A stretch of DNA of 64,000 bases from Bacteroidota bacterium (GTDB lineage Bacteria; Bacteroidota; Bacteroidia; Palsa-965): contig PLYR01000145.1 of the NCBI GenBank assembly GCA_003153435.1, positions 20,034 through 84,033 of the forward strand, given 5' to 3'. The notes under the pieces were generated by a model. That model was not told where the DNA came from, searched no databases, and saw only the letters and a list, made by a program, of their open reading frames with translations. The position numbers were made by a program, and so were the translations under genes. This document shows, piece by piece, positions 5,026 through 56,831 of the stretch. The number at the start of each line of letters is the position of its first letter. The stretch's first letter is position 1.

Positions 5026-5051
5026 CTTCTGCACTCATCTGCACTCAATTC

Positions 5052-6575
5052 ATGGCTAAATACGATATTGTTATTGTGGGGAGTGGCCTAGGGGGGCTGT
5101 GCTGTGGATATATCCTCAGCAAGGAAGGCTTTAATGTTTGTATCCTCGAAAAAAACAGACAGCTTGGCGGGAGCCTGCAGATATTTTCCAGAGATAAAGC
5201 CCTCTTTGATACCGGCATTCATTATATCGGAGGTCTTGATGAAGGACAGAACCTAAACCGGTACTTTCAGTATTTTGGTTTGATGGACAAGCTCAAGCTC
5301 AAGCGAATGGATATGGATGCGTTTGATGTCATCACCTTTGAGGGAGACCCTAAGCAGTATCATCATGCTCAGGGTTATGATAATTTTGTGAATGTCCTGG
5401 CTCTTCAATTTCCTGGAGAAAGGGAAAATATACAAAGGTATGCGGATAGGGTCAGAGAGATCTGTGATTATTTTCCTCTATATCGTCTTAGAGAAGATAA
5501 TAAGGACCTGCTCACGAGCAGTAGCTTTCTGGAGACAGACACCAAGCAGTATATTGAATCCATAACCACCAACCCGAAACTTCGGAGTGTGTTGGCAGGT
5601 TCTAACCCCTTATATGCCGGGATCCCGAATCGTACTCCGCTTTATGTACATGCATTGGTTGTGAATACGTATATTGAAAGTTCTTGGAAGTGTATTGATG
5701 GTGGAGCTCAGATCAGTAAACATCTTTCTCAATCCATAAAGGGGATGGGAGGCACTATTCTCAATTACAGTGATGCGAAAAAGTTTCACTTCAACGGTTC
5801 TAACATTGAATCCGTTGAACTTGCGGATGGGTCAAGAGTGGAAGCCAAACATTTTATTTCCAATGCGGATCTTTCAAGGACTCTGGAGATGGTTGAAGGA
5901 AACCAGGTAAGACCCGCTTACCGGTCGCGGATTAATGGATTGGAGAACACGATTTCAGCATTTATAGTCAATATTGTTTTTAAAAAAGAGAGTTTCCCTT
6001 ACCTCAATTATAATTGTTACCACTTTGCGACTGATGATGTCTGGTGCGGCACCACTTATACCCAGGAAACATGGCCTGACGGATTGGCAATTTTTACTGC
6101 GCCGAATTCACGTACCGGTCAGTATGCCGATAGTATGACGGTGATGTGCTATATGCACTATGATGAAACCAAGCAATGGGCTGGTACCCGAAGCACGATT
6201 CCGAATCAAATTGAATTCCGTGGGGAAGGGTATGAAGCTTTCAAACAAGAGAAATCAGAAAAGATGATTGATCTCCTGGAAAAACGGTTTCCCGGAATAC
6301 GTTCAAGCATTCAATCCTACACGTCATCCAGCCCTCTTACCTACAGAGATTATATCGGCTCCCGGGATGGAACACTCTATGGAATTCAAAAAGATTATAG
6401 AGACCCTCTTAAAACATTTATTACTCCCAAAACAAAAATTCCAAACTTGTTACTGACTGGTCAGAACCTGAACTTGCATGGTGTGTTGGGAGTTACAGTG
6501 AGTTCTGTGGTAACCTGTGCAGAGCTTGTCGGACAGAAGGACCTGATCAGGAAAATCAGTGCCGCATCGAGTTAA
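5052..6575 (+). CDS. FAD/NAD(P)-binding oxidoreductase of the phytoene-desaturase (CrtI/COG1233) family
   Basis: The N-terminus has the dinucleotide-binding motif DIVIVGSGLGGLCCGYIL...LEKN..LGG. The length of about 507 aa fits the CrtI-like amine-oxidase fold. Confidence 0.65.
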   Translation: MAKYDIVIVGSGLGGLCCGYILSKEGFNVCILEKNRQLGGSLQIFSRDKALFDTGIHYIGGLDEGQNLNRYFQYFGLMDKLKLKRMDMDAFDVITFEGDPKQYHHAQGYDNFVNVLALQFPGERENIQRYADRVREICDYFPLYRLREDNKDLLTSSSFLETDTKQYIESITTNPKLRSVLAGSNPLYAGIPNRTPLYVHALVVNTYIESSWKCIDGGAQISKHLSQSIKGMGGTILNYSDAKKFHFNGSNIESVELADGSRVEAKHFISNADLSRTLEMVEGNQVRPAYRSRINGLENTISAFIVNIVFKKESFPYLNYNCYHFATDDVWCGTTYTQETWPDGLAIFTAPNSRTGQYADSMTVMCYMHYDETKQWAGTRSTIPNQIEFRGEGYEAFKQEKSEKMIDLLEKRFPGIRSSIQSYTSSSPLTYRDYIGSRDGTLYGIQKDYRDPLKTFITPKTKIPNLLLTGQNLNLHGVLGVTVSSVVTCAELVGQKDLIRKISAASS

Positions 6576-26450: not shown

Positions 26451-26988
26451 CGTTGTGTTAATGATTATCAAAGGTTAAATCATAACATTGTAAAGCGTAT
26501 CCAATTCGCAATACACGAATCAAATTAATCCGGCCAAATAACAGATTGGACGATGGAATTACTCTTTTGTACGGAAGATTTCAAGAATAGATATACTTTT
26601 CTTAAAATAAACCTCAAAAACAATAATTATATTTGTAATCAGATCAATATTATAGGATTCCCTAAGCCTTATATTATTGATTAGTAGTGAGTTCTGCAGT
26701 GTGGTTCTTGGCTTTAAATTTCCGAAAAATTCCCGAAACCAGACAGGATAATTTGATAACATTCGACCAAAAGTATTTTATTGTCGACAAATATTATTAA
26801 ATATTCGACTAATATACTAAAAATAACTACTAACTAAAGTTTTTAGGCACATAAATTAGGCTTTTGACTGTATAAAATGGCCTTTCATCCAAAAAATAAT
26901 TTCGGAATTCAAGCGCAGACCTTGTAAGATTTCGGCAGGAAATTGTGATCGACAGGCAGGCCGATTTATGGGAAGAAATGCTAATTTA

Positions 26989-27479: not shown

Positions 27480-28541
27480 TTAATTCTTTACACATGAAAG
27501 TTTGTCGTAGTCGAGTACACTTATAAGCCGGCCTTTAATCTCGATAAGCTTTTCATCTTTCAAGTCGCTTAACATCCTGATGGCTGTTTCAGGCGCTGTT
27601 CCGGCCAGGTTTGCCAAATCTTCTCTCGAGATGCTGATACTGAAATTAGCTTCTCCATCTTTCTTGTACCTGTTGTAAAGTGTGACAAGCGCTTCCGCCA
27701 CCCGTTTACGAACGGAATTGTAGGCAAGTTTGAGGAGTTGGTCTTCTTTGTCAATTAAATCATTGGAAAGCATCTTGATAAATTTCTTTGAAACATCAGC
27801 ACTTTTATAAATCAGGGAGAAAAAATTATCTTTCGGAATCATGCAGATTTCAGAGTCTTCCAAAGTCATCGCCTCCTCTGTGTATTTGCTTTCTTCAAGC
27901 AAGGATAAGTGACCGAAAAATTCACCTTCCTTATAAAGACCATTGATGAATTCTTTCCCGAATTCATTTGTTTTAAAGGTTTTCACCTTTCCTTTAATAA
28001 CGAAATAAATTCCTTTAGGGTATCCTCCTGAGCTATATATTGATTCTTTCTTGCGGTAGTGATGAATATCCCGGTCTTCAGAAAGTTTTTTAAGGGTATC
28101 CAACCCTCCTGTTTCATTCATAAAGTCCTGAAGCCCTTCCAGACTTCTTTCGAATTTCTTCTTGAGATTATCAGCCTTTTTCAGTCTGCTGTCAATAGCA
28201 TTTAGCAGTTCCATATCGTCGAAAGGTTTGGTGATATAATCATCGGCTCCCATTTCCATTCCTTTTCTGAAATCATTCCTTTCGGTTTTGGCGGTAAGGA
28301 ATATAAAGGGGATATTGGAAGTTTCAGGGTTTTTGCCAAGCATATGCAATACGCCATAGCCATCCAGATGAGGCATCATGATATCACAAATAATTAAATC
28401 AGGCATTTCCGCAGAAACCATTTCCATACCTTCTTTTCCATTTGAAGCAGCCCTTACCTTATATCTGGCAAGTTCAAGCATTTCAGTCGTATTTTCCCGA
28501 AGTTCCGTGTTATCTTCGATTAAGAGGATTTTTTTGTGCAT
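27480..28541 (-). CDS. Fusion regulator with a CheY-like receiver domain, a cNMP-binding (CRP/FNR effector) domain and a Crp-type HTH
   Basis: The receiver motifs are LLIEDN...DLIICDIMMP...LTAK. A cNMP beta-roll with G-rich motifs follows. The C-terminal HTH is REDLANLAGTAPETAIRML. The start is placed at the ATG at 28541, 6 bp inside the listed TTG. It is a paralogue of the gene at 39439-40500. Confidence 0.75.
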   Translation of the reverse strand: MHKKILLIEDNTELRENTTEMLELARYKVRAASNGKEGMEMVSAEMPDLIICDIMMPHLDGYGVLHMLGKNPETSNIPFIFLTAKTERNDFRKGMEMGADDYITKPFDDMELLNAIDSRLKKADNLKKKFERSLEGLQDFMNETGGLDTLKKLSEDRDIHHYRKKESIYSSGGYPKGIYFVIKGKVKTFKTNEFGKEFINGLYKEGEFFGHLSLLEESKYTEEAMTLEDSEICMIPKDNFFSLIYKSADVSKKFIKMLSNDLIDKEDQLLKLAYNSVRKRVAEALVTLYNRYKKDGEANFSISISREDLANLAGTAPETAIRMLSDLKDEKLIEIKGRLISVLDYDKLSCVKN

Positions 28542-28637
28542 ATTCAAGTTGTTAATTATGATTGGCTCCTCTTTAAATTAAACAAATGTTAAGAATTCTT
28601 GCGATACCAAAATTAGGGAATGGATCCTTGGTAAACA

Positions 28638-28649
28638 TGATGAATATCA
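28638..28649. promoter_or_regulatory. Candidate CRP/FNR-type operator, the palindrome TGAT-GAAT-ATCA
   Basis: It is a perfect 4-4-4 inverted repeat in the divergent intergenic region. It lies about 80 bp upstream of the terB-like operon and about 100 bp upstream of the divergent REC-CRP gene. Confidence 0.3.
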
Positions 28650-28728
28650 GTTAATCTCTGGATATAGGTCATTCCAGGAAAACAATAGGCGAATTAGATT
28701 TGTCTTGTAATCAACTAATACCATAAAA

Positions 28729-29151
28729 ATGTCTGATATGAACCCTCTTCAAAACCTACATTACGCCCTCGGTGAATTGGCCTATTCGATAGCCCGGGCA
28801 GATGGAAAAGTACAGGAATCGGAAAAAAAACGTTTTCATAGCATTGTGGCCGCCGAACTTCGTTTGGGAAACTATGACTTCGACCTCAGCGATATCATAT
28901 TTCAGATTATGGACAAGGAGCATATTGATACGGAAACTTCCTACCATTGGGCCATGAATGAGATTCGTCTAAACAGCCATTATCTGAGCCCGGAACTAAA
29001 GCAAACATTCATCCGGGTGATGGAAAAGGTGGCCAGAGCCTACCCACCGGTTACCATTCAGGAAAAAGAATTATTGGATAAATTTAAAACGGATATTGCA
29101 ACCATTAATGGTGATCCTGTTTTTTATGAAAAACATAATAAACGCGTCTGA
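28729..29151 (+). CDS. TerB-like (tellurite-resistance / DjlA-N-like) domain protein
   Basis: It has LGELAYSIARADGKVQESEKKRF, which is typical of the TerB helical bundle. It is 140 aa and cytoplasmic. Confidence 0.45.
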   Translation: MSDMNPLQNLHYALGELAYSIARADGKVQESEKKRFHSIVAAELRLGNYDFDLSDIIFQIMDKEHIDTETSYHWAMNEIRLNSHYLSPELKQTFIRVMEKVARAYPPVTIQEKELLDKFKTDIATINGDPVFYEKHNKRV

Positions 29152-29196
29152 GGACGATTAAGAAACGGAATTAGTAAATAGTAAATAAAAATAGCG

Positions 29197-29739
29197 ATGT
29201 TAAATTATAATCCTGTTAACTTTAAGGAAATGAGCCCTTCTGAGCTTTGTGATTACATTGCTAAAAGGCACCATAAATATGTAAGGGAAGAATTTGGGAA
29301 GATCTCAGACCATCTGAAAACAGCTCTGAATGTGGATGTTAATTCAGGCCCCGAGCTGAGAGCAATCATCAAGCTCTTTCATGAATTGCATGACGAACTT
29401 GAGCAACATTTCAATAAGGAGGAGGAAATTCTTTTTCCTTTAGTTCAACAACTGATTATATCTGAGGAGACTGAGCGCGCCAAGAAGAATTTATCTGTAA
29501 GTATCATTGATAAGCCTTTGGAAGAAATGAACAAGGATCATAAAAAGATTGAACGAATTCTCTCTGAGATACGCCGGCTGAGTCATGATTATTTTCTGGA
29601 TCCGATGAGTTCGCCTACTCATAAATTGTGTTTAAATGAATTATTCGCACTGGAAGATGATCTTCACAAACAGTTTTACCTGGAAGAAAATATATTGACA
29701 CCGAAGCTGATTACCTGGGAACAAACCATATTATCATGA
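29197..29739 (+). CDS. Hemerythrin-like HHE cation-binding domain protein
   Basis: It has H/E-rich helices (HHKYVREEF, HELHDELEQHFNKEEEILFP). It is 180 aa. It overlaps the next gene by 4 bp (ATGA). Confidence 0.45.
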   Translation: MLNYNPVNFKEMSPSELCDYIAKRHHKYVREEFGKISDHLKTALNVDVNSGPELRAIIKLFHELHDELEQHFNKEEEILFPLVQQLIISEETERAKKNLSVSIIDKPLEEMNKDHKKIERILSEIRRLSHDYFLDPMSSPTHKLCLNELFALEDDLHKQFYLEENILTPKLITWEQTILS

Positions 29740-30179
29740 TAGCCACACATTCTTATATTGCCGCAGAAGCATTTACCCGGATTTCTCTGGGGATTATCTT
29801 CTTCTCTCAGGGTTATGATAAGGTTTTCAACCTTGGAATTCCCAGTGTCATTAATAATTTTGAATACCCGGTGAGATTGAAGCATCTCCCCAGGTTTCCC
29901 CTTGTTTTTGCAGCATACTTTACATCCATTGTCGAACTCATCGGAGGATTTCTGCTGATTCTCGGCTTCATGAAGTATTATGCCCTCTATTTTTTAGGAA
30001 TAGACCTCCTTATAGTGGTTGCATCGCTCTCTATGCTTGAACCCCTGTGGGATATGAAGCATGTATTTCCAAGAATGCTCCTCCTTGTTATTTTGTTGAT
30101 TATGCCTTCTTCGTGGGGAGTCGTTTCAGTTGATTACCTTTGGTCCATCATACGATTTATACGACATTTCCTATCCTAA
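29736..30179 (+). CDS. DoxX-family integral membrane protein
   Basis: It has four predicted TM helices. The DoxX-like start is RISLGIIFFSQGYDKV. It is 147 aa. Confidence 0.6.
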   Translation: MIATHSYIAAEAFTRISLGIIFFSQGYDKVFNLGIPSVINNFEYPVRLKHLPRFPLVFAAYFTSIVELIGGFLLILGFMKYYALYFLGIDLLIVVASLSMLEPLWDMKHVFPRMLLLVILLIMPSSWGVVSVDYLWSIIRFIRHFLS

Positions 30180-30190
30180 AATATAGTATC

Positions 30191-31021
30191 ATGAAGAGCC
30201 CTCAAATCCTTGTCCCTACTGATTTCTCTGACTCATCTAATAACGCTGCGGAGTATGCATGGTCCCTTGCAAAGGTGATGAAAGCTTCATTGCTCCTTTA
30301 TCACGCCTATCACATCCCAATTCCGACCACAGAAATGCCAATGATGATCGTTTCCTTAGAGCAGCTGGAAAAGGAGAATATCGATCGCCTCCATTCTTAC
30401 CGTGCACAATTGAGAAAAAAATTGGGTAACGATATTACTATAGATTGCATTGCAAGTCCCGGTTTTGCAGTCGAAGAAATTGCAGCACTGGTGAAGGACA
30501 AACAAATTGATTTTGTGATTATGGGAATATCCGGAGCAGGAAAGATTTCCCAAGCTCTCCTGGGTAGTGTTACTACCGGAGTGTTGAATGAAGTAAAGGT
30601 GCCTTTGCTGATTGTTCCGGAAGGTGCGAAGTTCCGTCCACTGACTAAGGTTGGCCTTGCTTACGACTATCAGAGTGAGATCAGTCCCAAAATTGTGGCA
30701 GAACTTAAAGCGGTTACTGCCTTGTTTAAATCCAAGCTCTTTATTATTGATGTAGAATCTCCGAAAGAAAAAGTGAATATCTCCAAGGCTGTAAGCGGAA
30801 TCAAGCTTGAGCAGGCCCTTGAAAGTATAGAACATACCCTTCATTTTCCTAAGAACAGTGATATCGTAACAGGGCTTATTGAATTTGATGAAAATCACAA
30901 AGTGGATCTCCTCATCATGATTCCAAAGAGGCATTCTCTGCTGTCGAGAATCTTCAATGCGAGCAGCACCAAACGGATGGCTTTTCATTCTCATACTCCT
31001 ATACTGGCCCTCCACGAATAA
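30191..31021 (+). CDS. Universal stress protein with tandem UspA domains
   Basis: The start is at the ATG at 30191 (MKSPQILVPTDFSDSS). There are two Usp repeats with G..G(9x)G(S/T)-like ATP motifs (VIMGISGAG). The stop overlaps the next start by 1 nt. Confidence 0.65.
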   Translation: MKSPQILVPTDFSDSSNNAAEYAWSLAKVMKASLLLYHAYHIPIPTTEMPMMIVSLEQLEKENIDRLHSYRAQLRKKLGNDITIDCIASPGFAVEEIAALVKDKQIDFVIMGISGAGKISQALLGSVTTGVLNEVKVPLLIVPEGAKFRPLTKVGLAYDYQSEISPKIVAELKAVTALFKSKLFIIDVESPKEKVNISKAVSGIKLEQALESIEHTLHFPKNSDIVTGLIEFDENHKVDLLIMIPKRHSLLSRIFNASSTKRMAFHSHTPILALHE

Positions 31022-32286
31022 TGGCGGTCATAAAAAGTAAGGAGAAAAAAGTGTGGAGTTTCACTAGGTTCTGGAAATCACTCGGTCCAGGATTAGTTAC
31101 CGGGGCCAGTGATGACGATCCTTCTGGTATCGCCACATATTCTCAGGCTGGAGCGGCTTTTGGCCTGTCTACACTTTGGACTGCTCTGATCACCTTTCCA
31201 TTGATGGCAGCTATTCAGGGTATGTGCGCCAGAATTGGTTTGGTTACTTCCAATGGCCTTACCTATACCTTAAAGAAGCACTATTCGAAACCCCTGCTGT
31301 ATGTCATGGTCCTTATTTCCCTCCCTGCTATTATCCTTAACATCGGGGCAGATATTGCAGGAATGGGTGCTGTTGCCAATCTGCTAGTTCCTTCTGTACC
31401 CGCTATTGTATTTGCTCTTTTGCTGGTATTCTTTCTGATCGTCAGCCTTATTTATTTTCCTTATCGAAAAATTGCCGCTGTTCTCAAATGGCTTTGCCTG
31501 ACTCTGCTGCTTTATGCAATCGTGCCTTTTCTGGTCAAGAACGACTGGTGGGAAGTGGCGAAAGCCTCCGTCATTCCTCAAATCCACTTTTCAAAAACAT
31601 ACCTCACCATCCTGGTTGGGATTCTTGGAACCACTATTTCTCCCTATCTCTTTTTCTGGCAGGCTTCCATGGAAAAGGAGGATCAGGAAAGTAAGAAAAG
31701 AACTATCATGGTAGGCTCCAAAGACCTTAGTGAAATGAAGGTTGATGTGAATGTCGGCATGTTTTTTTCAAACATTGTGATGTACTTTATTATCCTTACC
31801 ACTGGAAGTGTTCTTTTCAGAAACGGAGTCACCAATATCAATACTGTGCAGGAAGCGGCATCTGCCTTAAAACCTCTGGCAGGAAATTCAGCGTATCTTC
31901 TTTTTGCAATTGGAGTGATCGGAACAGGTTTTCTGGCTATTCCCGTACTGGCAGGTTCAGCATCTTATATCCTTTCAGAAACTCTGGGTTGGAAAGAAGG
32001 TCTGAATAAAAAGTGGAGTGAAGCCAAAGGCTTTTATTTAATTATAGCAGTTTCAATTATTATCGGCTTCCTGATAAACCTTCTGAACATAAATCCCATC
32101 AAAGCTCTTCTCTTCACTGCTGTTGCCTATGGTATTACCGCACCTGTGTTGATAGGTATGATCCTGCATATCTGCAACAATAAGAAGATTATGGGGGAAC
32201 ATACCAATACCCGGCTTTCCAATGTGCTGGGCTGGTTTGCCTTATTGCTGATGGCATTTGCGGCAGTGGCTTTGTTTATTATCTGA
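31021..32286 (+). CDS. NRAMP-family divalent metal (Mn2+/Fe2+) transporter
   Basis: It has GPGLVTGASDDDPSGIATYSQAGA, the NRAMP DPGN-type motif region. It has about 11 TM segments and is 421 aa. Confidence 0.75.
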   Translation: MAVIKSKEKKVWSFTRFWKSLGPGLVTGASDDDPSGIATYSQAGAAFGLSTLWTALITFPLMAAIQGMCARIGLVTSNGLTYTLKKHYSKPLLYVMVLISLPAIILNIGADIAGMGAVANLLVPSVPAIVFALLLVFFLIVSLIYFPYRKIAAVLKWLCLTLLLYAIVPFLVKNDWWEVAKASVIPQIHFSKTYLTILVGILGTTISPYLFFWQASMEKEDQESKKRTIMVGSKDLSEMKVDVNVGMFFSNIVMYFIILTTGSVLFRNGVTNINTVQEAASALKPLAGNSAYLLFAIGVIGTGFLAIPVLAGSASYILSETLGWKEGLNKKWSEAKGFYLIIAVSIIIGFLINLLNINPIKALLFTAVAYGITAPVLIGMILHICNNKKIMGEHTNTRLSNVLGWFALLLMAFAAVALFII

Positions 32287-32333
32287 AGAAGATTCAATTA
32301 TCCGCGGTTATTGACAATTGTTATTTTATGCAT

Positions 32334-33425
32334 TCATGGATTAGCCGTCTGAAATGGAATTGTAAAGTAAAGGGTACTACCAAAACCTATTCGGCTCTCC
32401 ACCCAGATCCTGCCACGAGCCTTCTCGACAATTTTCCTCACTATGGAAAGGCCCACTCCTGTACTTTCCACATCTTTCCGGTGGTGGGCCTTCACAAAGA
32501 CGTCAAATATTTTTTCAAAATAGCGTTCTTCTATCCCCATTCCGTTATCCTCTACAAAGAACATCCATTCATTCCCTTTCTTGTCCCACCCAATCTTTAT
32601 TACTCCATCCGGTTTGTCCATGAATTTTACGGCATTCCCAATCAGGTTTTCAAAAACCTCTCTAAGGTGCGTCTTATTGAAAAGCACAGTTGGAAACCGT
32701 TCGGATAAAATGAATTTGATCTTAATCCTGCTGGTATAGCGCTTTGCAATTTCATCCAGCAAATCATTTAAGTTAATCGTTTCAGCCTCCTCCTGGTTGT
32801 TCCCCACCCTGAAATACTCCAGGAGGTCAACGATAAGTGCATTCATGTAGTTGGCTTCCTTTTGTGCTAAATGAAACAGGGTTATAAATTCTTCATCCAT
32901 TTGAGCGGAATATTTTGCAAGACTCAGGTCAAGCACGCCTTTGATTCCATTCAAAGGGTTTTTGAGATCATGAGCTGCAACCCTGGTCAACATTTCCAAT
33001 TCCTTGTTGGCTCTTTCAAGATCCTCCACCAATTGCTTAAGCTGCTCCTCATACCTGATTCGTTCGGTGATATCCTTACCGGATGAGACAAAATGAGTGA
33101 TCTCCCCGGTATCATCACATACCGGAGTAATAGTCTTTTCTTCGAAATAGATCTCTCCGTTCTTTTTTTTGTTACAAACTACTGCGCGAAAGGGTTTCTT
33201 GGCTAGGATCGTCTCCCACATACCTCGGTAGTAATCTTTAGTAGCCCTGCCTGACTGAAGGAATCGTGGATTCTTCCCTAATACCTCCTCAGAAGTATAT
33301 CCTGTTATGGTCTCAAAAGCAGGATTTACGTAGGTTATAGCTCCATCTTTGGTTGTAAAAAATATATTATCGGAGGTGATCTTAATCGCAGAGTCAAACC
33401 CAATGGGGACTGTACTGATATTCAT
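32334..33425 (-). CDS. PAS-domain sensor histidine kinase (cytoplasmic)
   Basis: The PAS motifs are ITYVNPAFETITGY, EEVLGKNPRFLQS. The HisKA H-box is AAHDLKNPLNGI. The HATPase_c boxes N (LIGNAVKF) and G1/G2 (DNGMGI, GVGLSI) are present. Confidence 0.75.
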   Translation of the reverse strand: MNISTVPIGFDSAIKITSDNIFFTTKDGAITYVNPAFETITGYTSEEVLGKNPRFLQSGRATKDYYRGMWETILAKKPFRAVVCNKKKNGEIYFEEKTITPVCDDTGEITHFVSSGKDITERIRYEEQLKQLVEDLERANKELEMLTRVAAHDLKNPLNGIKGVLDLSLAKYSAQMDEEFITLFHLAQKEANYMNALIVDLLEYFRVGNNQEEAETINLNDLLDEIAKRYTSRIKIKFILSERFPTVLFNKTHLREVFENLIGNAVKFMDKPDGVIKIGWDKKGNEWMFFVEDNGMGIEERYFEKIFDVFVKAHHRKDVESTGVGLSIVRKIVEKARGRIWVESRIGFGSTLYFTIPFQTANP

Positions 33426-33466
33426 TTTCTTGTTGTTTATAAAAATGAAAAGTCAGAAACACACAC

Positions 33467-34009
33467 CTATTTTCGAACGCTTGACATCAATTTTAGCGTT
33501 GAACAAAGAACATAGATTACTACAACCATAAATATTAGGGCTGCAAACAAAAGGTATTCAGACATGCTGAACTGATTCAAAATGGAAGCGCTCTGGATTT
33601 TTGGTTCAGCCGAATTTATTGAAGCAGAGCTTACGGGTGTCTCCGTAGGGACGGGCTTAACGGCTTGTGCTGCACCTTCTACCTGAATGAAAGCCAATAC
33701 AGATTTTATCTCTGAATCCTTCAAAGGCTGGTCGGTCATTGGCATTCCATTGTTTTCATTGAATAGACGTACAGCTTCCGGATCACCTGCCTGAACCATC
33801 TTCTGGGATGATTTTATCCATTTTAATGACCAGCTCTCCGGATGCCGGTCATTCACTCCTAAAAGATCCGGACCAACCAATTTGCCTTTGCCGATGGTGT
33901 GACAAGCTCCGCAATTGGCTTTGAATAAAGTTCCTCCATCCTGTCCGGATGAAAGCTGGGCGTAATGCAGAAGGAAAATTGTTGCGATAAATGTGAGTTT
34001 GGTTTTCAT
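33467..34009 (-). CDS. Class I c-type cytochrome with a C-terminal membrane anchor
   Basis: It has a signal peptide. The haem-binding motif is CGACH, and a Met-rich distal region (NGMPM) follows. The C-terminus has a hydrophobic helix (YLLFAALIFMVVVIYVL). Confidence 0.65.
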   Translation of the reverse strand: MKTKLTFIATIFLLHYAQLSSGQDGGTLFKANCGACHTIGKGKLVGPDLLGVNDRHPESWSLKWIKSSQKMVQAGDPEAVRLFNENNGMPMTDQPLKDSEIKSVLAFIQVEGAAQAVKPVPTETPVSSASINSAEPKIQSASILNQFSMSEYLLFAALIFMVVVIYVLCSTLKLMSSVRK

Positions 34010-47769: not shown

Positions 47770-48123
47770 CTATTCCAGCCCTGTGGCTTGGTTTTTCAAT
47801 AGTTCAATCTGCTTTCTGGCAACATTTGGGTTTGCGGCACTCCCATTGAGACAAACCATCTGAAATGCAAGGACCGATAGCTTCCAGTCGTAAATGATTC
47901 CTTTATAGGAACATTTATAAACACGTTTGAAGTTCATGTCGAGCGGTATCCCGGCATGCAAACAAAGCTCCATTGCCCGTTTCACAGCTTCATGAAACTC
48001 TTCTATGTCTTCAAAATCCATTTTAGCCGCAGCCTCCGAGGCAAAAAAAACCAAATTGTGTTCCCGGACCTGTTCTCGAAGAAAATCTTCCTGGTTTGAT
48101 AGATATAACTGAATCTCCTCCAT
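47770..48123 (-). CDS. Hypothetical protein at the head of the mla-like operon
   Basis: It is a 117-aa ORF with no recognisable motif. It lies 40 bp upstream of mlaE on the same strand. Confidence 0.4.
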   Translation of the reverse strand: MEEIQLYLSNQEDFLREQVREHNLVFFASEAAAKMDFEDIEEFHEAVKRAMELCLHAGIPLDMNFKRVYKCSYKGIIYDWKLSVLAFQMVCLNGSAANPNVARKQIELLKNQATGLE

Positions 48124-48360: not shown

Positions 48361-48409
48361 TCTTTGAAAAACGGAACCCAATCAATCTGATTGGGTTCCG
48401 TTTTTCAAA
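48361..48409. terminator. Perfect 23-bp-stem hairpin with a 3-nt loop. It is probably the relic terminator of a decayed hsp20 gene.
   Basis: The sequence is CTTTGAAAAACGGAACCCAATCA-ATC-TGATTGGGTTCCGTTTTTCAAAG. The stop codon of the Hsp20 remnant lies inside the stem. Confidence 0.5.
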
Positions 48410-48519
48410 GACACTTGAATTTCTTTCTCGGAAAGAACTTTGCTGATTTCTTTCTTGGGAATTGTTAGGTGCAGGACACCATCCGTGTATTTAGCGTCAA
48501 TTTTATCGGCATTTACAGT
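48381..48519 (-). pseudogene. Remnant of a small heat-shock protein (Hsp20/alpha-crystallin family). Only the C-terminal roughly 45 codons are left, with no start codon.
   Basis: The minus-strand translation is TVNADKIDAKYTDGVLHLTIPKKEISKVLSEKEIQVSLKNGTQSD*. This matches the conserved sHSP C-terminus (..A.Y.DGVL.LT.PKKE..). An in-frame TAA sits immediately upstream, and all frames are closed beyond it. Confidence 0.45.
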
Positions 48520-48711
48520 TTATAGAACAAAACTACTTCACCTGTTAGCTATTCAAAGGGCTGGTCTCAATGCTCAGGATGATTGTTGTCAGAATTGACA
48601 ATTGGCCCAATAAAAGTGCCAGAATGACAGCCTGATTTCTTGCTCAATCTTTAAATAAGACTTCTAATAAAGGATAAAGAGCAAAGGTCCGCCAGAGTTT
48701 GCACTTTCAAC

Positions 48712-49160
48712 TTGATTACGTGTACTCCTACAATACTCGGAGTAACTATTACAAGAGTAGGAGTAACTATTACAATACTCGGAGTAACTATTACAAGAGT
48801 AAAAGTAACTCTTACAAGAGTAGGAGTTACTATTACTAGACTCGGAGTAACAATTACAAGAGTAAAAGTAACTTTTATAAGAGTAAAAGTAACTCTTACA
48901 ATTGTAGGAGTGACTTTTACAAGAGTAAGAGTAACTATTACTACACTCGGAGTAACAATTACAAGAGTAAAAGTAACTTTTACAGTAGTAAGGTGTACTC
49001 CTACAATACTCGGAGTAACTTTTACTATTGTAGGAGTAACTCCTACTACACTCGGAGTAACTATTACTATTGTAGGAGTACACCTTATTACTTCCGAAGT
49101 CACTTTTACAACATCGGAAGGTACTCTTACGAGCTTCGGAGCATCTCCGAAGCTACCCGG
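48712..49160. repeat. Tandem array of about 21 copies of a 21-bp unit. The consensus is approximately TAACTATTACAAGAGTAGGAG, with variable 3' heptamers CTCGGAG, GTAGGAG and GTAAAAG.
   Basis: The period is directly visible. Two frames on each strand are free of stops. This yields heptad translations VTITRVG (+) or TPTLVIV / YSYNSKS (-). It accounts for four overlapping predicted ORFs at 48651-49505. Confidence 0.8.
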
Positions 49161-49234
49161 AAGGAGTCTATTCGAAAAATGATGCGCTCCTGGTCTATAA
49201 GTTTGATTACCAATAAAGAAGAGAGGAACTTCTA

Positions 49235-49444
49235 CTACATTTTCTTTAAAAAGCAGGTTTTCAACACCATATGTGTTTTCTCAACCCGTCCTTCAATCTC
49301 TTCTTCACTGTCGGTAAGTTTGATGTTCTTAACCACTGTCCCACGTTTGATGATACCGGAACCACCCTTGACCTTTAAATCTTTAATAACCGATACTGAA
49401 TCGCCCTCGCTGAGAAGGGTTCCGTTGCTGTCTTTTACATCCAT
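49235..49444 (-). CDS. PhnA/YjdC C-terminal domain protein, lacking the Zn-ribbon
   Basis: VKDSNGTLLSEGDSVSVIKDLKVKGGSGIIKRGTVVKNIKL aligns with the C-terminal half of E. coli PhnA (YjdC) (VKDANGN.L.DGDSVT.IKDLKVKGSS...G.KVKNIRL). Confidence 0.6.
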   Translation of the reverse strand: MDVKDSNGTLLSEGDSVSVIKDLKVKGGSGIIKRGTVVKNIKLTDSEEEIEGRVEKTHMVLKTCFLKKM

Positions 49445-49538: not shown

Positions 49539-50978
49539 CTATTTCTGAACCACACTGAGCTTCAGGACCTGGTTATGGCCATCATGGGTTAGCAGTACAA
49601 AATAAACACCGCTGGCCTGATCGGACATTTGCAGTAAGATTGTATCGGATCCTCTGGCTATATAAGCAGAAATAGATTCGCCCAGGCAATTGTATATCCT
49701 GACTTCATCTAATGGATTTGTATTTCTGATCTGAAAACTCCCATCAACTGAAGGGTTCGGGAAAATGAAAACTTGCTTAATTGAAGTCATCTCCAGAATT
49801 CCTGTATTCAGAGGTTGCGATTTGAACTGAATTTCATCAATTTTCAGATCAGAGCCTACATAGGTGAGAGAAGAATCCTGCCAGGATGAGGAGCCAATCT
49901 GAACAATAACAGAATCCGGGGTTTGGCCAAGCTGCAGTGGTATTTCAACATAAGTGTAACTTGCTGAAGCATGCAGGTTTTTCCCCATACTGAAAATCGA
50001 AGAGCCATTTTTCTTAAACTGGAGACTCAGGTTTGCGCTGTCATTTCCTGAAGGAATATATTTATAGTAAAAGGACAATGTATCTGTCATATTTGTGAAA
50101 GGATAACCGCCTTTCCATATGCAGTTGTTTCCACTACAAAAGCCTGTACTTACCTGACCGGGTGCTGCCACAACAGTATTATTGTTATTACCCAAATAGG
50201 TTTTCAATTCCAATGCGTAATTGCCTTTTGCAGCATCGGTAGTCCGATAAATGCCATCACCCTGATCGTCGGTATTGAGATACCAGCTGTTGGGGCTATT
50301 AATTGTTTTGCTCTGCCAGAGTTCGAAATCCCCATTCATGAGTGCTGGTTGCGAAGTTACTCCGGTGAAGGAAACACTGTCTATCTGCAGCATGCTTCCA
50401 TTCAAGGGGAGGTTCTTGTTCATAAAATCGCTTGAAGCTGCGGCAAAGATTACCGTATCGGGAGTTACGGTGAGTGCCGGACTAAACGTGAAGGCAAAAG
50501 GGGTATAAGATCCGTGTGTACCGTATAGGGCGAAAACATATGCCCCAATTGGATGTCCGCCTGATTTGAAATAAGCCAGAATCCTGGCTGTATCGCCTGC
50601 AGGCACTGTCGATTTATAATAACCCCTGATACCATGTGGTTTTTGGGTGTAAGGCATGCCGCCTGGCCAAAAGGAGGTGGGACTGCCATTCGGAAATCCG
50701 CTGATGAAATAGCCTGTGCATGCATTATTTCCGGAACCTATCGTAGTTAGTTTTACCGCGGTTGCACCGTGGTAAGCATCGGTAGTCTTCACACAATTAA
50801 ATCCCGAATTACATCTAATTACTGCCGAAGGATTTGAGGTGGTTGGATAATTTTGTGGATAATCAAAAACTGCCGTATTCCAGTTTTCGAAACTCCCGTT
50901 AGGGATCGCATTTTGCGATAATGCCAGGTTGCTGAGTAAACAGCAGGAAGCCGCGAGTAAGTATAGATTTGTTTTCAT
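49539..50978 (-). CDS. Secreted protein with a T9SS type-A C-terminal sorting domain. The N-terminal roughly 390 aa have no known function.
   Basis: It has a signal peptide. The C-terminal roughly 80 aa match the Por_Secre_tail pattern (FPNPS...Y.L.G......QAS.GVYFV..T.DG......KL...). There is no catalytic motif. Confidence 0.65.
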   Translation of the reverse strand: MKTNLYLLAASCCLLSNLALSQNAIPNGSFENWNTAVFDYPQNYPTTSNPSAVIRCNSGFNCVKTTDAYHGATAVKLTTIGSGNNACTGYFISGFPNGSPTSFWPGGMPYTQKPHGIRGYYKSTVPAGDTARILAYFKSGGHPIGAYVFALYGTHGSYTPFAFTFSPALTVTPDTVIFAAASSDFMNKNLPLNGSMLQIDSVSFTGVTSQPALMNGDFELWQSKTINSPNSWYLNTDDQGDGIYRTTDAAKGNYALELKTYLGNNNNTVVAAPGQVSTGFCSGNNCIWKGGYPFTNMTDTLSFYYKYIPSGNDSANLSLQFKKNGSSIFSMGKNLHASASYTYVEIPLQLGQTPDSVIVQIGSSSWQDSSLTYVGSDLKIDEIQFKSQPLNTGILEMTSIKQVFIFPNPSVDGSFQIRNTNPLDEVRIYNCLGESISAYIARGSDTILLQMSDQASGVYFVLLTHDGHNQVLKLSVVQK

Positions 50979-52842: not shown

Positions 52843-53304
52843 ATGAAAACTATAAACCTACAGTTCGCGCTTAAGAGTCTTCTCGTTATTGGTGGAGCCA
52901 TAGTTCTGGGATCAGCGACCCTTAACACTGAGATAAAATCCAAGTCGATCGTATCCCCCGTAACAGGAGAATGGATAGCCCCCGCATCTGCTGATACGAT
53001 TAAGAACCCTTTGAAAGGTAATGCGGCTTCTATAGATGACGGAAAAAAACTATACGCAAAATTTTGTGTAGTCTGTCATGGAGAGAAGGGGAAAGGAGAT
53101 GGAGTTGCTGCTGCGGGTCTGACTCCTCGACCGGCAGACCACTCGTCGGAAAAAATTCAAAAGCAATCGGATGGAGCTCTTTTTTGGAAACTTACTACCG
53201 GACGTGCACCAATGGCCTCCTATAAACAATTCAGTGCCGAACAACGATGGGCTCTAGTTAACTTTATGCGTACTCTAAAAGCACCTGTTAAATCAAAAAA
53301 ATAA
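52843..53304 (+). CDS. Class I cytochrome c (periplasmic)
   Basis: It has a signal peptide. The haem motif is CVVCHGEKGKGDG. A Met ligand region (RAPMASY) follows. Confidence 0.6.
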   Translation: MKTINLQFALKSLLVIGGAIVLGSATLNTEIKSKSIVSPVTGEWIAPASADTIKNPLKGNAASIDDGKKLYAKFCVVCHGEKGKGDGVAAAGLTPRPADHSSEKIQKQSDGALFWKLTTGRAPMASYKQFSAEQRWALVNFMRTLKAPVKSKK

Positions 53305-53345
53305 AATTTCAGATCAGTTTAAATTTTATATCAAAGCACTTAATT

Positions 53346-53846
53346 ATGAATAAGAAAACATTCCTTCTGCTGGCAACCTTTTCGGTTTTATTGACTTTCG
53401 GTTGCTCTAATAATAATGGAACGGTTAATAAGGAAACTGTTAATACGGAAGCAGCACCAGATGTCAAACCTAAGACAGATTCATTAGTTGTTTCACCTGG
53501 TAACGCCAGCAAAGGTATCGGACGGTTTAAAGATGTTCAGTTGTCGCACCCAATTGATGCGGCAATGGCTTCTAAGGGACAATCAATTTTTGATGCAAAA
53601 TGTATGGCTTGCCATAAAACGGATGATGAAAAATTAGTCGGTCCAGGGTGGAAAGGTGTTACAGACAGGCATTCGCCAGAATGGCTAATGAATTTTATTA
53701 CAAATACCCAGGTAATGCTTGATAAGGATCTTACAGCCCAGCAGGAACTTGCTGTGTGTGTGGTCAGAATGCCGAATCAGGATCTAACCGATGAACAGGC
53801 ACGACAGATTTTGGAGTTTATGCGCCAAAATGATGGGAAAAAATAG
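53346..53846 (+). CDS. Cytochrome c lipoprotein
   Basis: The lipobox is LLTFGC. The haem motif is CMACHKTDDEKLVGP. It lies 40 bp downstream of the preceding cytochrome gene. Confidence 0.6.
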   Translation: MNKKTFLLLATFSVLLTFGCSNNNGTVNKETVNTEAAPDVKPKTDSLVVSPGNASKGIGRFKDVQLSHPIDAAMASKGQSIFDAKCMACHKTDDEKLVGPGWKGVTDRHSPEWLMNFITNTQVMLDKDLTAQQELAVCVVRMPNQDLTDEQARQILEFMRQNDGKK

Positions 53847-53860
53847 GAATACCTTGTTCT

Positions 53861-55222
53861 TTAAATGGTTTGACTCAATCGAACTTTATTGGATTCATTG
53901 TTCCGCATTCTTGCATCAAATGCCATGCAGATATTCCTGATAAAAGGTAAACCATTTTGAAGTATTTGAACACCATATTTCTCGGTTCTCAATAAACCAT
54001 CTTTTTCAAATTCCTTTAGTTCTTGAACAGTTCTTTCGAGAGTCTCAAACTGTTCATGTTCTTGTTCCCACGAAGTATAGCCATAGCACATAATGTTCAG
54101 AATGTGTTTCCGGAGAATAGTATCCTCTTTAGAAAGAAGATGCCCCTTGAAGAAAGGAAGGGTATTTTCATCGACTCTTTTGTAATAATCTTCTACTTTC
54201 TTCTCATTTTGTATAAATGCTGTCCACGAGTCGCTGATAGAGGAGACTCCCAGTCCGATAAGTAAACGGGTTGAATGGGAGTTATATCCCATAAAGTTCC
54301 GGTGAAGATGTTTCTCTATTTTGGCATGGTAGAGGCTATCCGTAGGCAGTGCAAAATGATCCATCCCAATTTCCTCGTACCCTTTCAGAGCAAGCATTTG
54401 CCGCCCTGTTTCATATAATTCAAGCTTCTCCTCATTTGCAGGAAGATCAGCTTCAGTAAATTTTCTTTGCCCGGGTTTTATCCAGGGTATGTGAGCGTAG
54501 CTGTAAAATGCAATTCTATCGGGTAGCAAAGTACTGACCTTCTCTATGGTTGTAATAATGCCAGCTTTCGTTTGTTTTGGAAGACCATAGATCAGATCAA
54601 AGTTAATAGATGTAAAACCTATTTTACGGCTCCAGTCGGTTAATCGTTTTACATGTTCAAAAGGTTGTACCCTGTTTACTATTTCCTGCACAACAGGATC
54701 AAAATCCTGAACACCAATACTTATTCTCTTAAAGCCAAGTGCATATAATGTTTTCAAATGTTCTTCCGTAGTATTATTTGGATGTGCCTCAAAGCTAAAT
54801 TCACTTTCAGGGCATCTGGTAGCGGATGAAAGGATGCTATGGATAAGCATTTGCAGATTTTCAGGGCTGAAAAACGTCGGAGTTCCACCACCCAGATGAA
54901 GTTCTTTTATCCGCGGTTTTTCCTCAAACAGTTCAAGATATAGCGCCCATTCTTTAAGAACAGCATTAATATACATCTTCTCTACTGCATGGTTCACTGT
55001 GATACGGGTATTACAGCCACAATACGTACAAAGACTCTCGCAAAAGGGCAAATGAATATATATACTAATACCTTCCTTACTGTTTGTTTTCTGGAAAGTA
55101 AATTTTACTTCATTTTCCCATTCACTTTTGGAAGGAGGTTCGGTCCAAAATGGAACCGTTGGGTAACTGGTATACCTAGGCCCTGGAATATTGTATTTGG
55201 AAAAAAGATTTTTTACTGGCAT
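53861..55222 (-). CDS. hemN: Oxygen-independent coproporphyrinogen III oxidase (radical SAM)
   Basis: It has the radical-SAM CxxxCxYC motif (CESLCTYCGC). The HemN N- and C-domains are present. It is 453 aa. Confidence 0.8.
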   Translation of the reverse strand: MPVKNLFSKYNIPGPRYTSYPTVPFWTEPPSKSEWENEVKFTFQKTNSKEGISIYIHLPFCESLCTYCGCNTRITVNHAVEKMYINAVLKEWALYLELFEEKPRIKELHLGGGTPTFFSPENLQMLIHSILSSATRCPESEFSFEAHPNNTTEEHLKTLYALGFKRISIGVQDFDPVVQEIVNRVQPFEHVKRLTDWSRKIGFTSINFDLIYGLPKQTKAGIITTIEKVSTLLPDRIAFYSYAHIPWIKPGQRKFTEADLPANEEKLELYETGRQMLALKGYEEIGMDHFALPTDSLYHAKIEKHLHRNFMGYNSHSTRLLIGLGVSSISDSWTAFIQNEKKVEDYYKRVDENTLPFFKGHLLSKEDTILRKHILNIMCYGYTSWEQEHEQFETLERTVQELKEFEKDGLLRTEKYGVQILQNGLPFIRNICMAFDARMRNNESNKVRLSQTI

Positions 55223-55256
55223 AGATACAAAAGTATGGTGAGCTTAGAAGAGCATT

Positions 55257-55272
55257 CATGACTTTTGTCATG
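55257..55272. promoter_or_regulatory. Perfect 16-bp palindrome CATGAC-TTTT-GTCATG (TGAC-N4-GTCA core). It is a CRP/FNR/Dnr-type site upstream of hemN.
   Basis: Its centre is about 42 bp upstream of the hemN start codon. Both arms are fully complementary. Confidence 0.35.
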
Positions 55273-55363
55273 AGCTCACATGACCTTGAAGATCATAGCA
55301 ATGTCGGTTGCCATATGAATCGGGGTGGAAGGGTACTAGTATACGCAAATAAGATGTAGCCTT

Positions 55364-55987
55364 CTAAGCAATTTCTCTTCCAGGAGTAAACAGGATTTCA
55401 AAATCCTTTTGAAGGGAGATTCCTTTATCTTGCGAATACCAAAGATGAAGGTTATTGAGAAATTCCTCATGTAAAACATCCGGTTTCTTTGCTTTAAACT
55501 CTTTTACCAATTGTTGAATAAGAGAAGATCTCGGGCCCCAGCTGGCTATCTGGCGACCAGACTCCCTTTCAATACAGATCAATTTTGGAATTGAACGTGA
55601 GCCGTTGGTTAAATAGTTATCCATTAGATCCAAATTTTGATCTCTGAGCAGGATCCGGAGTTCAATATTTTTAGAATAAGAGGCAATATTTGCAATTATG
55701 GGAATATTTTGCGCCCCATCTCCGCACCAGGATTCCGCGAAAAGCACCCATACTTGAGGAGTGCTTATGGCGCTAATATTTCTGATTAGTTTCTGATTTG
55801 AAATCCCTTGTTTTGAAATACGCTTCATGCGTGTTGCGTTTAATCTTGTGGCTGCAATCCGTTCTACGGGTTGGTCTTTACCTGTTGTCAGTCCATATTC
55901 GGCGCACATCACTACAAGATCGCTGTATTCCTCATAAGGGTAGGAAATTTTATTTTCAATTTTATTTAAAGTTGCGGATGGGCTCAT
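55364..55987 (-). CDS. Thioredoxin-fold protein with a WCGDG (CxxC-like) motif
   Basis: It has VLFAESWCGDGAQN. The start is placed at the internal ATG (MSPSATL) at 55987. It is 208 aa. Confidence 0.45.
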   Translation of the reverse strand: MSPSATLNKIENKISYPYEEYSDLVVMCAEYGLTTGKDQPVERIAATRLNATRMKRISKQGISNQKLIRNISAISTPQVWVLFAESWCGDGAQNIPIIANIASYSKNIELRILLRDQNLDLMDNYLTNGSRSIPKLICIERESGRQIASWGPRSSLIQQLVKEFKAKKPDVLHEEFLNNLHLWYSQDKGISLQKDFEILFTPGREIA

Positions 55988-56066
55988 GTCGAATAGATTA
56001 TTTAGACAAATGAACTCAAAAGACAGCCTCCATACTATGAGGATGCTCATAGTATGGAACTATTTG

Positions 56067-56831
56067 CTAATCGGTCAGATTTGCAATTTCGATTAACTCC
56101 TGAAGATTGATGATTTTTATTTTTTTCCCTATAAGGTCAATGTATTTTCTTTTTTTGAGGTCCGAAAGGGTACGAATAGCTGTTTCAGTAGTTGTTCCTG
56201 CAATGTTTGCTATGTTTTCCCGGGTGATTTTAGAATTTAGGGTGCAACCATCTGCTTCACACCCAAAAAAATCTTTCAACATTAGAATTGTTTCAGCAAT
56301 TCTTTCATGAACATTTTTTTGGGCAAGGTCCATCGCTTTCTGCTCCGCTGATTTCAGATCAGATGACAATAATCGCATGATTTGCGATATGACCAGTGGA
56401 TTTGTTACAATCAGGTTTTGATAAGTCGCTTTAGGAAAGAAACAAATAGTGGAGTCCTCCAGGGCAGTTGCAGAAGCATGATAGCAATCATCGCTTAGGA
56501 GGGCTCTATAACCTATTACCTGACCTTTTTTAGCAAGCCTTAATATCTGATCTTTCCCGTCATGGCCAAGTTTGTGTATTTTTACCTTTCCCGAGTAGAT
56601 ACAATGCAATCCGAGGGGATGATTGCGTTCAAAAAATATGACTTGGCCTTTTTTATAGGTATTGAACGATTTTGAGTGAGAAAGTTCTTGTAAATCAAGT
56701 TTGCTCAAGGCACAGAAAATAGAATCTTTGGCGCTATCACACTTCTCACACGGTGTAGCTTCGTAAAGTGTTCTTGATGAAATGTTCATGGTGTTTGAAA
56801 TAGGTTGAGTGAAGATCCAACTATTGCTCAT
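56067..56831 (-). CDS. CRP/FNR-family transcription regulator with an N-terminal Cys cluster (FNR-like, putative Fe-S oxygen sensor)
   Basis: The N-terminus is ..TPCEKCDSAKDSIFC.. The cNMP-like beta-roll follows. The C-terminal HTH is RENIANIAGTTTETAIRTL. An alternative ATG lies at 56789. Confidence 0.7.
   Translation of the reverse strand: MSNSWIFTQPISNTMNISSRTLYEATPCEKCDSAKDSIFCALSKLDLQELSHSKSFNTYKKGQVIFFERNHPLGLHCIYSGKVKIHKLGHDGKDQILRLAKKGQVIGYRALLSDDCYHASATALEDSTICFFPKATYQNLIVTNPLVISQIMRLLSSDLKSAEQKAMDLAQKNVHERIAETILMLKDFFGCEADGCTLNSKITRENIANIAGTTTETAIRTLSDLKKRKYIDLIGKKIKIINLQELIEIANLTD

Follow-up and report, generated by a model that had tools for sequence, protein, structure and literature searches.

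A 21-bp tandem array downstream of yjdM in a Bacteroidota contig is probably the core of a dispersed, non-coding intergenic repeat element

The stretch of DNA analyzed here, referred to as the window, comprises 64,000 nucleotides (nt) of contig PLYR01000145.1 (positions 20,034 to 84,033 of the forward strand) from a Bacteroidota bacterium of the Palsa-965 lineage (GenBank assembly GCA_003153435.1). Coordinates are window positions unless another locus is named. An array of 21-bp tandem repeats occupies an intergenic gap between the stop codon of a yjdM/phnA-domain gene at 49235 and the start of a gene for a protein of 117 amino acids (aa) at 48123. The gap measures 1111 bp, not the 1.4 kb of gene-less DNA reported in an initial annotation of the sequence. 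In addition to the array, it contains a truncated remnant of an hsp20 gene, a perfect inverted repeat and a piece of unique DNA (Table 1). The array probably forms the core of an intergenic repeat element that is dispersed, non-coding and rich in palindromes; a second copy of this element was found at an unrelated locus.

Table 1. Features of the gap that holds the array and of its two borders
Feature	Positions	Strand	Remarks
117-aa gene	47770-48123	-	opens the mlaE-mlaF-mlaD cluster; delimits the 1111-bp gap on the side away from yjdM
Perfect 22-nt inverted repeat	48361-48411		arms 48361-48382 and 48390-48411; 7-nt loop; flanking T/A runs; 22/22 self-complementary
Truncated hsp20 remnant, C-terminal 44 codons	48383-48516	-	Pfam HSP20, 67-102 of 102; 28.1 bits; E 2.3e-06
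Unique DNA, 176 bp	48517-48692		between hsp20 remnant and element
"Tail" end of element	48693-48728	+	end motif TGCACTTTCAACTTGATTACGTGTACTCC at 48700-48728; nhmmer match 48701-48728
Core array, 17 x 21-bp units	48724-49080		consensus ACTATTACAAGAGTAGGAGTA; mean pairwise identity 75%
143-nt foldback	48967-49109		internal and head end motifs paired; encloses four repeat units
Internal end-motif copy	48973-49001	+	GTAACTTTTACAGTAGTAAGGTGTACTCC; nhmmer E 5.9e-05; pairs with head motif in foldback
"Head" end of element	49075-49108	-	inverted end motif GTGACTTCGGAAGTAATAAGGTGTACTCC; nhmmer match 49102-49075, E 4.5e-06
Three degenerating 21-nt registers, window locus only	49102-49164		stretch not significantly conserved in L113, the second locus
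yjdM/phnA-domain gene	49235-49444	-	Pfam YjdM, E 7.5e-29; stop faces element head

The array is real, and its period is exact. As the initial annotation had described, 21-bp units follow one another in tandem: 17 well-formed units and about five degenerate ones make up 22 registers between 48703 and 49164. Tandem Repeats Finder (TRF) reported a period of 21 at 48739-49080 (16.3 copies, 73% matches) as well as a higher-order period of 105 bp, or five units, within the array (3.2 copies, 82% matches), and a repeat search of the window returned 17 in-register copies at a spacing of exactly 21 bp. The core units agree with the consensus ACTATTACAAGAGTAGGAGTA at 13 to 21 of the 21 positions, the mean identity between units within the array being 15.7/21, and the degenerate units comprise one on the left (48703) and about four on the right (49081-49164). 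The motif GGAGTAACTNTTAC, with at most one mismatch allowed, occurs 11 times, always within the array, compared to 0.05 occurrences expected. The units are quasi-palindromic, containing GTAA-N3-TTAC, TACTC-G-GAGTA and GTAGGAGT-A-ACTCCTAC. They abut head to tail with no spacers, so that the array is indeed not CRISPR-like. Over 21.4 kb, an independent assembly from the European Nucleotide Archive (ENA), L001, departs from the window at 3 bases, none of which is in the array; the latter therefore is not an assembly artefact. Short-read contigs from Logan that stem from related samples, namely L003 (SRR7151530) and L112 (SRR7151531), have ends at window 48220 and about 49222, flanking the gap and never entering it.

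The second copy was found through protein-level evidence. A search with the minus-frame translation of the array retrieved only this copy and one compositional analogue; the match was P0111, an 89-aa protein (E 4e-14), the gene of which lies on a 158-kb contig (L113) from the same ENA metagenome sample as L001. In L113, the element sits between a gene for a CoA-binding protein and a glyoxalase gene, both intact. Six core units are present there, compared to 17 in the window, with a 42-bp period at 5044-5176 (92% matches), an internal inverted copy of the end motif at 5025-5053 and a foldback of 95 nt at 4962-5056 (z -7.8). The units of the two arrays can be almost the same: unit 5113 of L113, ACAATTACAAGAGTAAAAGTG when reverse-complemented, is 20/21 identical to window unit 48955, ACAATTACAAGAGTAAAAGTA. 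The flanks of the two copies are unrelated and their orientation relative to the neighboring genes is opposite. Both copies lie 3' of stop codons. In the window, 71 bp separate the yjdM stop from the last degenerate unit, and its distance to the conserved head is 127 bp; in L113, the distance to the glyoxalase stop is 30 bp.

The two copies share a fixed architecture, consisting of an end motif of about 29 nt, an inverted internal copy of this motif, the main run of 21-nt units and, last, the end motif once more in inverted form. The window copy extends over about 48693-49108, and decayed units run on to about 49164. The end motif, which is itself related to the repeat unit, ends in ...AAGGTGTACTCC, and its perfectly conserved part, GTGTACTCC, points inward at both ends. 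As a profile, the end motif reads GTCACTTCGGAAGTAGTAAGGTGTACTCC; a form of the unit is ACAATTACAAGAGTAAAAGT. The tail-edge sequence CAGAGTTTGCACTTTCAACTTGATTACGTGTACTCC (48693-48728) aligns to L113 5172-5203 with about 29 of 33 bases identical, and the homology stops at about 48693; farther out, the DNA of the two loci is no more alike than shuffled sequence (z 1.4). Likewise, the head-edge sequence GGAGTACACCTTATTACTTCCGAAGTCACTTTTA (49075-49108) is identical to L113 at about 28 of 34 positions in a local alignment, and strong homology stops at about 49108, beyond which the likeness again falls to that of shuffled sequence (z 0.8). Between the loci, tail matches tail at 24/29 positions and head matches head at 23/29, whereas head and tail of the same locus, being diverged inverted copies of the motif, agree at only 16-22/29. 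Thus, the end motifs are position-specific across loci, and the element must have been copied whole rather than generated separately at each site.

Strong folding is predicted for the element. The 143-nt foldback of the window copy holds a perfect 19-bp stem, AAGGTGTACTCCTACAATA / TATTGTAGGAGTACACCTT, and its predicted DNA fold has an energy of -34.2 kcal/mol (z -8.4). Folding of the whole array gives z values of -10 to -12 on either strand. At a smaller scale, single units hold only 4-5-bp palindromes, and a few of the junctions between units contain perfect stems of 6-8 bp. Within the degenerating registers, a GC-rich hairpin, GCTTCGGAG-CAT-CTCCGAAGC, is found at 49133-49153; it may be the original terminator stem of yjdM.

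These observations bear directly on how the array arose. An ordinary bacterial variable-number tandem repeat (VNTR) is a tandem array at a single locus, for which slippage or unequal exchange is the expected way of growth. The window array resembles such minisatellites in its tandem unit within the 10-100-bp range, its location in non-coding DNA and its higher-order structure. A minisatellite specific to this locus, formed in situ by slippage in DNA decaying after the loss of hsp20 and with no identity as an element, would explain several findings. The array lies in a 1.1-kb gap beside a truncated hsp20 gene, its units decay gradually toward 49164, the 105-bp period points to local block duplication, and an array is missing from this position in the relatives nearest to the 117-aa gene. 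However, L113 holds, between unrelated flanks, a second array whose units are near-identical and whose differentiated end motifs and foldback are those of the window copy. This largely refutes the explanation, and the defined inverted end motifs and a second dispersed copy are not features of an ordinary VNTR. The initial annotation had implicitly treated the array as a one-off local expansion that may have accompanied the loss of hsp20. The conserved inverted end motifs and the second copy speak against the former notion. The latter finds no support: the remnant is real and truncated, yet it is not directly adjacent to the array; it lies 177 bp from the element boundary, the DNA in between matches nothing, and the L113 copy sits between intact genes. 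An origin in situ is therefore quite unlikely. Of the three options offered by the initial annotation, its "non-coding minisatellite" comes closest to the reading of the array as a dispersed element, but it missed the conserved end motifs and the second copy.

L113 likely belongs to the same genome as the window copy. Compared to the window, L113 shows a tetranucleotide correlation of 0.963, which is the best of all fetched loci and inside the window's own range, and a GC content of 0.423 compared to 0.421. This closeness in composition, the shared sample with L001 and the existence of an NCBI-sourced version of the L113 open reading frame (ORF) all point to a common genome.

The array is overlapped by several long ORFs. 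It had been described as stop-free in four frames, and frames +0, -0 and -1 are indeed open; frame +2 contains one TAG and is split into two ORFs. The start at 49103, previously given as the only ATG, is in fact GTG, and the other ORFs begin with GTG or TTG, none with ATG. Openness of this extent is at the null level. When random 21-mers from the window were tandemised, a mean of 4.3 of 6 frames was stop-free and four open frames was the commonest outcome; with 21-mers of the array's base composition, the mean was 3.5 of 6. The open frames thus carry no information, because about four of six frames stay open for any tandemised 21-mer. In the consensus unit, the single substitutions that create a stop number 2/63 in frame +0 and 0/63 in frame -1, and the 19 distinct variants found among the units show no avoidance of stop-creating changes (P 0.48).

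Could the array nevertheless encode a small family of beta-strand heptad-repeat proteins, (VTITRVG)n on the plus strand or (TPTLVIV)n on the minus strand, with paralogues at the two loci? Frames +0, -0 and -1 are open in both copies, the plus frame starts at a homologous TTG (MITCTP / MIRCTP), and one gene caller called P0111/P0113. The codon-usage log-likelihood of the plus frame (TITRVGV) is 0.073 per codon, at about the 5th percentile of real gene pieces (0.077), and is low yet within the range of real genes; that of the minus frame (TPTIVIV), 0.009, is below every real gene piece. On the other hand, differences between units are even over the codon phases (20/23/18), with no bias to third positions. 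None of the four ORFs matches Pfam or NCBIfam, a collection of 15 billion sequences contains none of them as a called protein, and the gene calls made for L001 include nothing in the gap. The homology to a known repeat protein that the initial annotation had named as a refutation is lacking, as phmmer, Pfam and NCBIfam return unrelated heptads or nothing. In particular, phmmer with the plus frame against 1.84 billion representatives gave 84 matches. These are heptads, among them (DLTATEL)n, (SETGVSC)n and (VKITRVP)n, that resemble the query in period and composition without being homologues. AlphaFold2 modeled the plus frame with a mean pLDDT of 34.4, a pTM of 0.23 and no residue above 50, and a beta-solenoid or ice-binding-like reading of (VTITRVG)n was rejected on this low confidence (pLDDT 34). 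No Bacteroidota TAnnTTTG promoter was found in the element or just upstream, including upstream of the plus ORF, and no signal peptide in the heptad ORFs. In both copies the ORFs run out of the element and their ends, including the C-termini, fall in non-homologous flanking DNA, as expected of spurious ORFs. Such a protein family is therefore very unlikely, and the long ORFs are almost certainly artefacts of a 21-nt unit that lacks stop triplets. Neither of the two coding options of the initial annotation finds support, with openness at the null level and no family, homologue or fold. Of these, the contingency locus is unlikely also by its position, since no intact ORF or promoter contains the array, which is 3' of yjdM and 5' of a pseudogene fragment.

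A related example of ORFs called across an array is provided by P0112 on contig L114 (ENA ERZ25039482 contig_32714). As a homologue of the element it was rejected, because the unit differs, the end motifs are absent and the likeness came only from the protein-level search. At L114 4118-4370, an unrelated GC-rich 21-bp array, ATCGTCACGCTGACGATCGTG, comprises 12 copies and shows higher-order periods of 42 and 84 bp. This array is quasi-palindromic and intergenic-looking, and it has been gene-called as a 225-aa protein with (TIVIVTP)n, a second example of such an ORF artefact.

If the element is non-coding at the protein level, it might still specify a structured RNA, for example a protein-sponge RNA with many GGA-containing hairpins. 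The very strong folding on both strands, the presence of GGAG in most units and the conservation of the foldback in both copies, where an exchange of G-C for A-T retains pairing (AAGGTG/CACCTT compared to AAGATG/CATCTT), would be in keeping with this idea. However, equal folding of the two strands follows from palindromic units, as a repeat acting at the DNA level predicts, and the one covarying pair is accounted for equally well if the internal motif is a copy of the head motif. An Rfam scan of 47-51 kb (E up to 1) gave only sub-threshold matches to miRNA-like hairpins. Furthermore, the element has no Bacteroidota promoter motif inside or just upstream and no dedicated terminator. (A sigma-70 promoter and terminator scan is uninformative for Bacteroidota, and its matches were periodic artefacts of the unit.) An RNA gene is thus a very improbable explanation. 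No tRNA or tmRNA was found.

A further explanation, which is compatible with that of a dispersed element, is that the units are phased protein-binding sites, either iteron-like or a landing pad for a nucleoid or regulatory protein. Each unit holds a short palindrome, the 21-bp period is exact, and GTAA-N3-TTAC recurs at every 21 bp, that is two helical turns, so that all sites would face one side of the helix. The bacterial interspersed mosaic elements (BIMEs) are known to bind IHF and gyrase, and iteron-like clusters on GTAACCGTTAC occur in the unrelated contigs L105 and L092. Iterons are typically 3-8 well-conserved copies beside a rep gene or origin. Like those of plasmids and phages, which are direct repeats of about 19-22 bp with a short palindrome, the window units are short, direct and palindromic; unlike them, 17-22 units are present that have diverged to 75% identity, there is no adjacent initiator gene or origin, and BLAST found no similarity to plasmids or phages. 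Nearby genes include no replication initiator, partition or mobile-element gene. An origin of replication (oriC) was rejected: DnaA boxes are fewer than chance (9 sites compared to 19 expected) with no cluster, and the skew has no inflection or switch. As the sole account of the array, binding sites are improbable.

The other arrays with GTAAC palindromes came from a DNA-pattern scan of metagenomes that forced this motif, so they provide no evidence of a family. The scan returned 22 loci, all with unrelated flanks, and the sharing of GTAAC..TTAC among them is imposed by the pattern. Several are probably eukaryotic (with long trinucleotide microsatellites) and some are iteron-like; nothing of relevance came from the same kind of scan of a viral collection. 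At L105 4700-4940, L092 7921-8014, L095 8269-8378 and L097 8422-8623, GTAAC(C/G)GTTAC palindromes make up iteron-like clusters or arrays with a period of 21-22 bp. They include GTAACCGTTACTTTT about eight times at 22-29-bp spacing and a perfect array of 4.5 x 21 bp, again with the motif forced by the search pattern.

Compared to known repeat families, the element appears by analogy to work like the BrickBuilt and the repetitive extragenic palindromic (REP)/BIME families, though it is not classed with either. BrickBuilt of Porphyromonas gingivalis is an intergenic MITE (a miniature, inverted-repeat type of transposable element) with a spacer-less 23-nt minisatellite of 1-22.8 copies (PMC4596501). 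It is lineage-restricted, has long predicted stem-loops and no Rfam match, and is overlapped by predicted ORFs that are not expressed (PMC4596501). Its leader of up to 285 nt and tail of up to 318 nt carry IS5-type terminal inverted repeats (TIRs), GAGACCTTTGCA / TGCAAAGGTCTC, and 19 copies are present per genome (PMC4596501). The element shares with it the phylum, the intergenic location and a tandem core of imperfect copies with a period of about two helical turns (23 nt there, 21 nt here). The copy number varies between loci in both (1-22.8 there, 6-17+ here), no match to Rfam is found, and hypothetical ORFs are sometimes called across the repeat. In contrast to BrickBuilt, the ends here are short, each of about 29 nt being a diverged version of the repeat module itself, a further inverted copy inside the element forms a foldback, and two copies are known rather than 19 per genome. 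The IS5-type TIRs are not found in the gap beyond chance: the best matches have 3/12 mismatches, with 59 equally good sites in the window, and a likeness at 48681 (GCAAAGGTC) was rejected as being at chance level.

The REP-type families provide the other comparison. GTAG REPs have stems of 5-13 bp that are usually GC-rich and an unpaired GTAG (or CGTC) tag; they are linked to RAYT transposases and reach tens to thousands of copies (PMC3733652). The survey that described them did not report GTAG REPs in Bacteroidetes, where only CGTC-type repeats were seen (PMC3733652). According to three papers (PMC3733652, PMC3116915, PMC2817692), REP, BIME and REPIN sequences are extragenic and mostly just 3' of ORFs, consist of short palindromic modules in alternating orientation and often in tandem clusters that vary in size, and generate no target-site duplication, all of which also applies here; the REPIN, an inverted pair of units that forms a hairpin, resembles the foldback of the head and internal motifs. 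The differences are several. First, single units have AT-rich stems of only 4-5 bp. Second, across some 20 units there are 6 instances of GTAG and 4 of CTAC, and in GTAGGAGT-A-ACTCCTAC the GTAG is part of an 8-bp stem rather than an unpaired tag. Third, there are no solitary copies in the approximately 74 kb of this genome covered by the element analysis. Fourth, no RAYT was found among the genes checked (window 39.5-61 kb, ten window ORFs and L113). The TAACTGA heptamer repeats of Beggiatoaceae and some Bacteroidetes differ in unit and period (PMC4679880).

The element is most likely an ordinary kind of bacterial repeat that is novel in sequence and comes from a poorly sampled lineage. Its array would change in length by replication slippage or by unequal exchange, the blocks involved comprising several units each (105 bp in the window, 42 bp in L113), and the whole unit would have reached its second site by a mobilisation or recombination mechanism acting in trans. 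The ORFs would be incidental to a 21-nt unit in which stop triplets happen to be absent. Should transcription of the upstream gene extend 3' through the element, the hairpins could act like REP/BIME or BrickBuilt stem-loops, either as a barrier to 3' exonucleases or polymerase or as docking sites for proteins. Alternatively, it may simply be selfish or neutral DNA.

Several results weigh against this reading as a dispersed non-coding element. Solitary end motifs were absent from the 64-kb window and from 10 kb of L113 in searches with the nhmmer profile, and no further copy was found in 1.2 Mb of fetched DNA, so that only two are known. A DNA-pattern scan of JGI metagenomes gave no homologous copy, with a pattern that could not match the L113 variant. 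The genes of window 39.5-61 kb (by Pfam), ten further window ORFs and the L113 genes include no transposase. No direct repeat that would indicate a target-site duplication is present at the homology boundaries of either copy, these boundaries being placed only to within a few bases. The length of the array is the same in two assemblies of each locus (window and L113), which come from near-identical strains. That the two copies share a genome is likely rather than proven. Finally, two properties of the ORFs noted above, the conservation of three open frames with a common TTG start and a plus-frame codon usage within the range of real genes, belong to the same side of the balance.

A bolder proposal, which we regard as possible though doubtful, is that the two copies represent the visible part of a larger family of modular foldback elements, so far undescribed, from an unsampled lineage of Bacteroidia. 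Such elements would be built of 21-nt palindromic modules with differentiated end motifs, would spread in trans by a hairpin-recognising enzyme (acting on single-strand DNA, RAYT/IS200-like or other) and would have a REP/BIME-like function in 3' untranslated regions. If true, the family would extend REPIN/BIME-type biology to a phylum that was surveyed with only CGTC-type repeats (PMC3733652), and, should it prove numerous and mobile, it would provide a handle on the spread of hairpin-based elements in Bacteroidota. Even as an ordinary repeat, the element would be a second example from Bacteroidota, after BrickBuilt, of a dispersed intergenic element with its own minisatellite, and elements of the BrickBuilt kind can alter transcript ends and promote rearrangement. 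There is also a practical consequence for annotation. Three to four long ORFs lie over the array, one of which has already been deposited as a hypothetical protein at the sister locus, and such mis-annotation can be avoided: about four of six frames are open for any tandem repeat with a period that is a multiple of three, so these ORFs are no evidence of coding.

The surroundings of the element show signs of rearrangement. The element and the hsp20 truncation both lie at a rearranged junction. The hsp20 remnant is 53-62% identical over 34 aa in tblastn to intact Hsp20 proteins of L036 and L108, and no further hsp20 homology was found on either side of the array. The initial annotation had suggested comparing the syntenic region of relatives for an intact hsp20; a search for an intact neighbor with the remnant as query gave no candidate. 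The unique DNA between remnant and element has no hsp20 homology, no copy elsewhere in the window or fetched loci and no plasmid or phage match. The perfect 22-nt inverted repeat looks like a bidirectional terminator; following the minus strand from yjdM in the 3' direction, it is the first strong structure of a terminator-like kind. The hsp20 remnant overlaps it with its last 8 codons, and the frame of the remnant runs 8 codons past the usual ...KEIKVS C-terminus.

Comparison with relatives was made through the 117-aa gene and the mla cluster. The organism is a member of Bacteroidota without close sequenced relatives; the closest MlaE to its own in 185,579 species genomes shows 68-69% identity, and a neighboring gene at 49539-50978 bears a sorting domain of the type IX secretion system (T9SS). 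Among 80 MlaE loci, none (0/80) has the local gene order, and the 117-aa gene, yjdM and an array are each absent from all of them. Homologues of the 117-aa protein (55-80% identity) lie upstream of mlaE as in the window, and the array is absent at this position in all examined relatives of the gene. The closest of them, P0005 (80%), is separated by no more than 96 bp from its upstream neighbor, which encodes 119 aa and is oriented divergently. A TerB-like gene of 134-136 aa precedes the 117-aa homologue in L084, the P0007 contig and L109. In the window, a TerB-like 135-aa gene, 76% identical to the L110 homologue, is found at 28729-29133 (+), 19 kb from the junction, and this displacement indicates that the junction holding the element is rearranged. 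The 117-aa protein has no Pfam family and a weak partial NCBIfam match to DNA damage-inducible protein D (21 bits compared to a cutoff of 242); it belongs to a small family (23 matches) conserved beside mlaEFD in this lineage of Bacteroidia.

Other parts of the window hold further genes of interest. At 27480-34009 and 52843-56831, apparent low-oxygen and stress genes are present, including those for response regulators with cyclic nucleotide monophosphate (cNMP)-binding and Crp helix-turn-helix (HTH) domains, Usp, hemerythrin, cytochrome c/cbb3-type proteins and PAS histidine kinases. Relatives hold FixS, cbb3 oxidase and Hsp20 genes in the equivalent neighborhoods. In addition, an ORF of 2112 aa lies at 20133-26471 (-), and the GC content at 20-24 kb is 0.495, compared to a window mean of 0.42.

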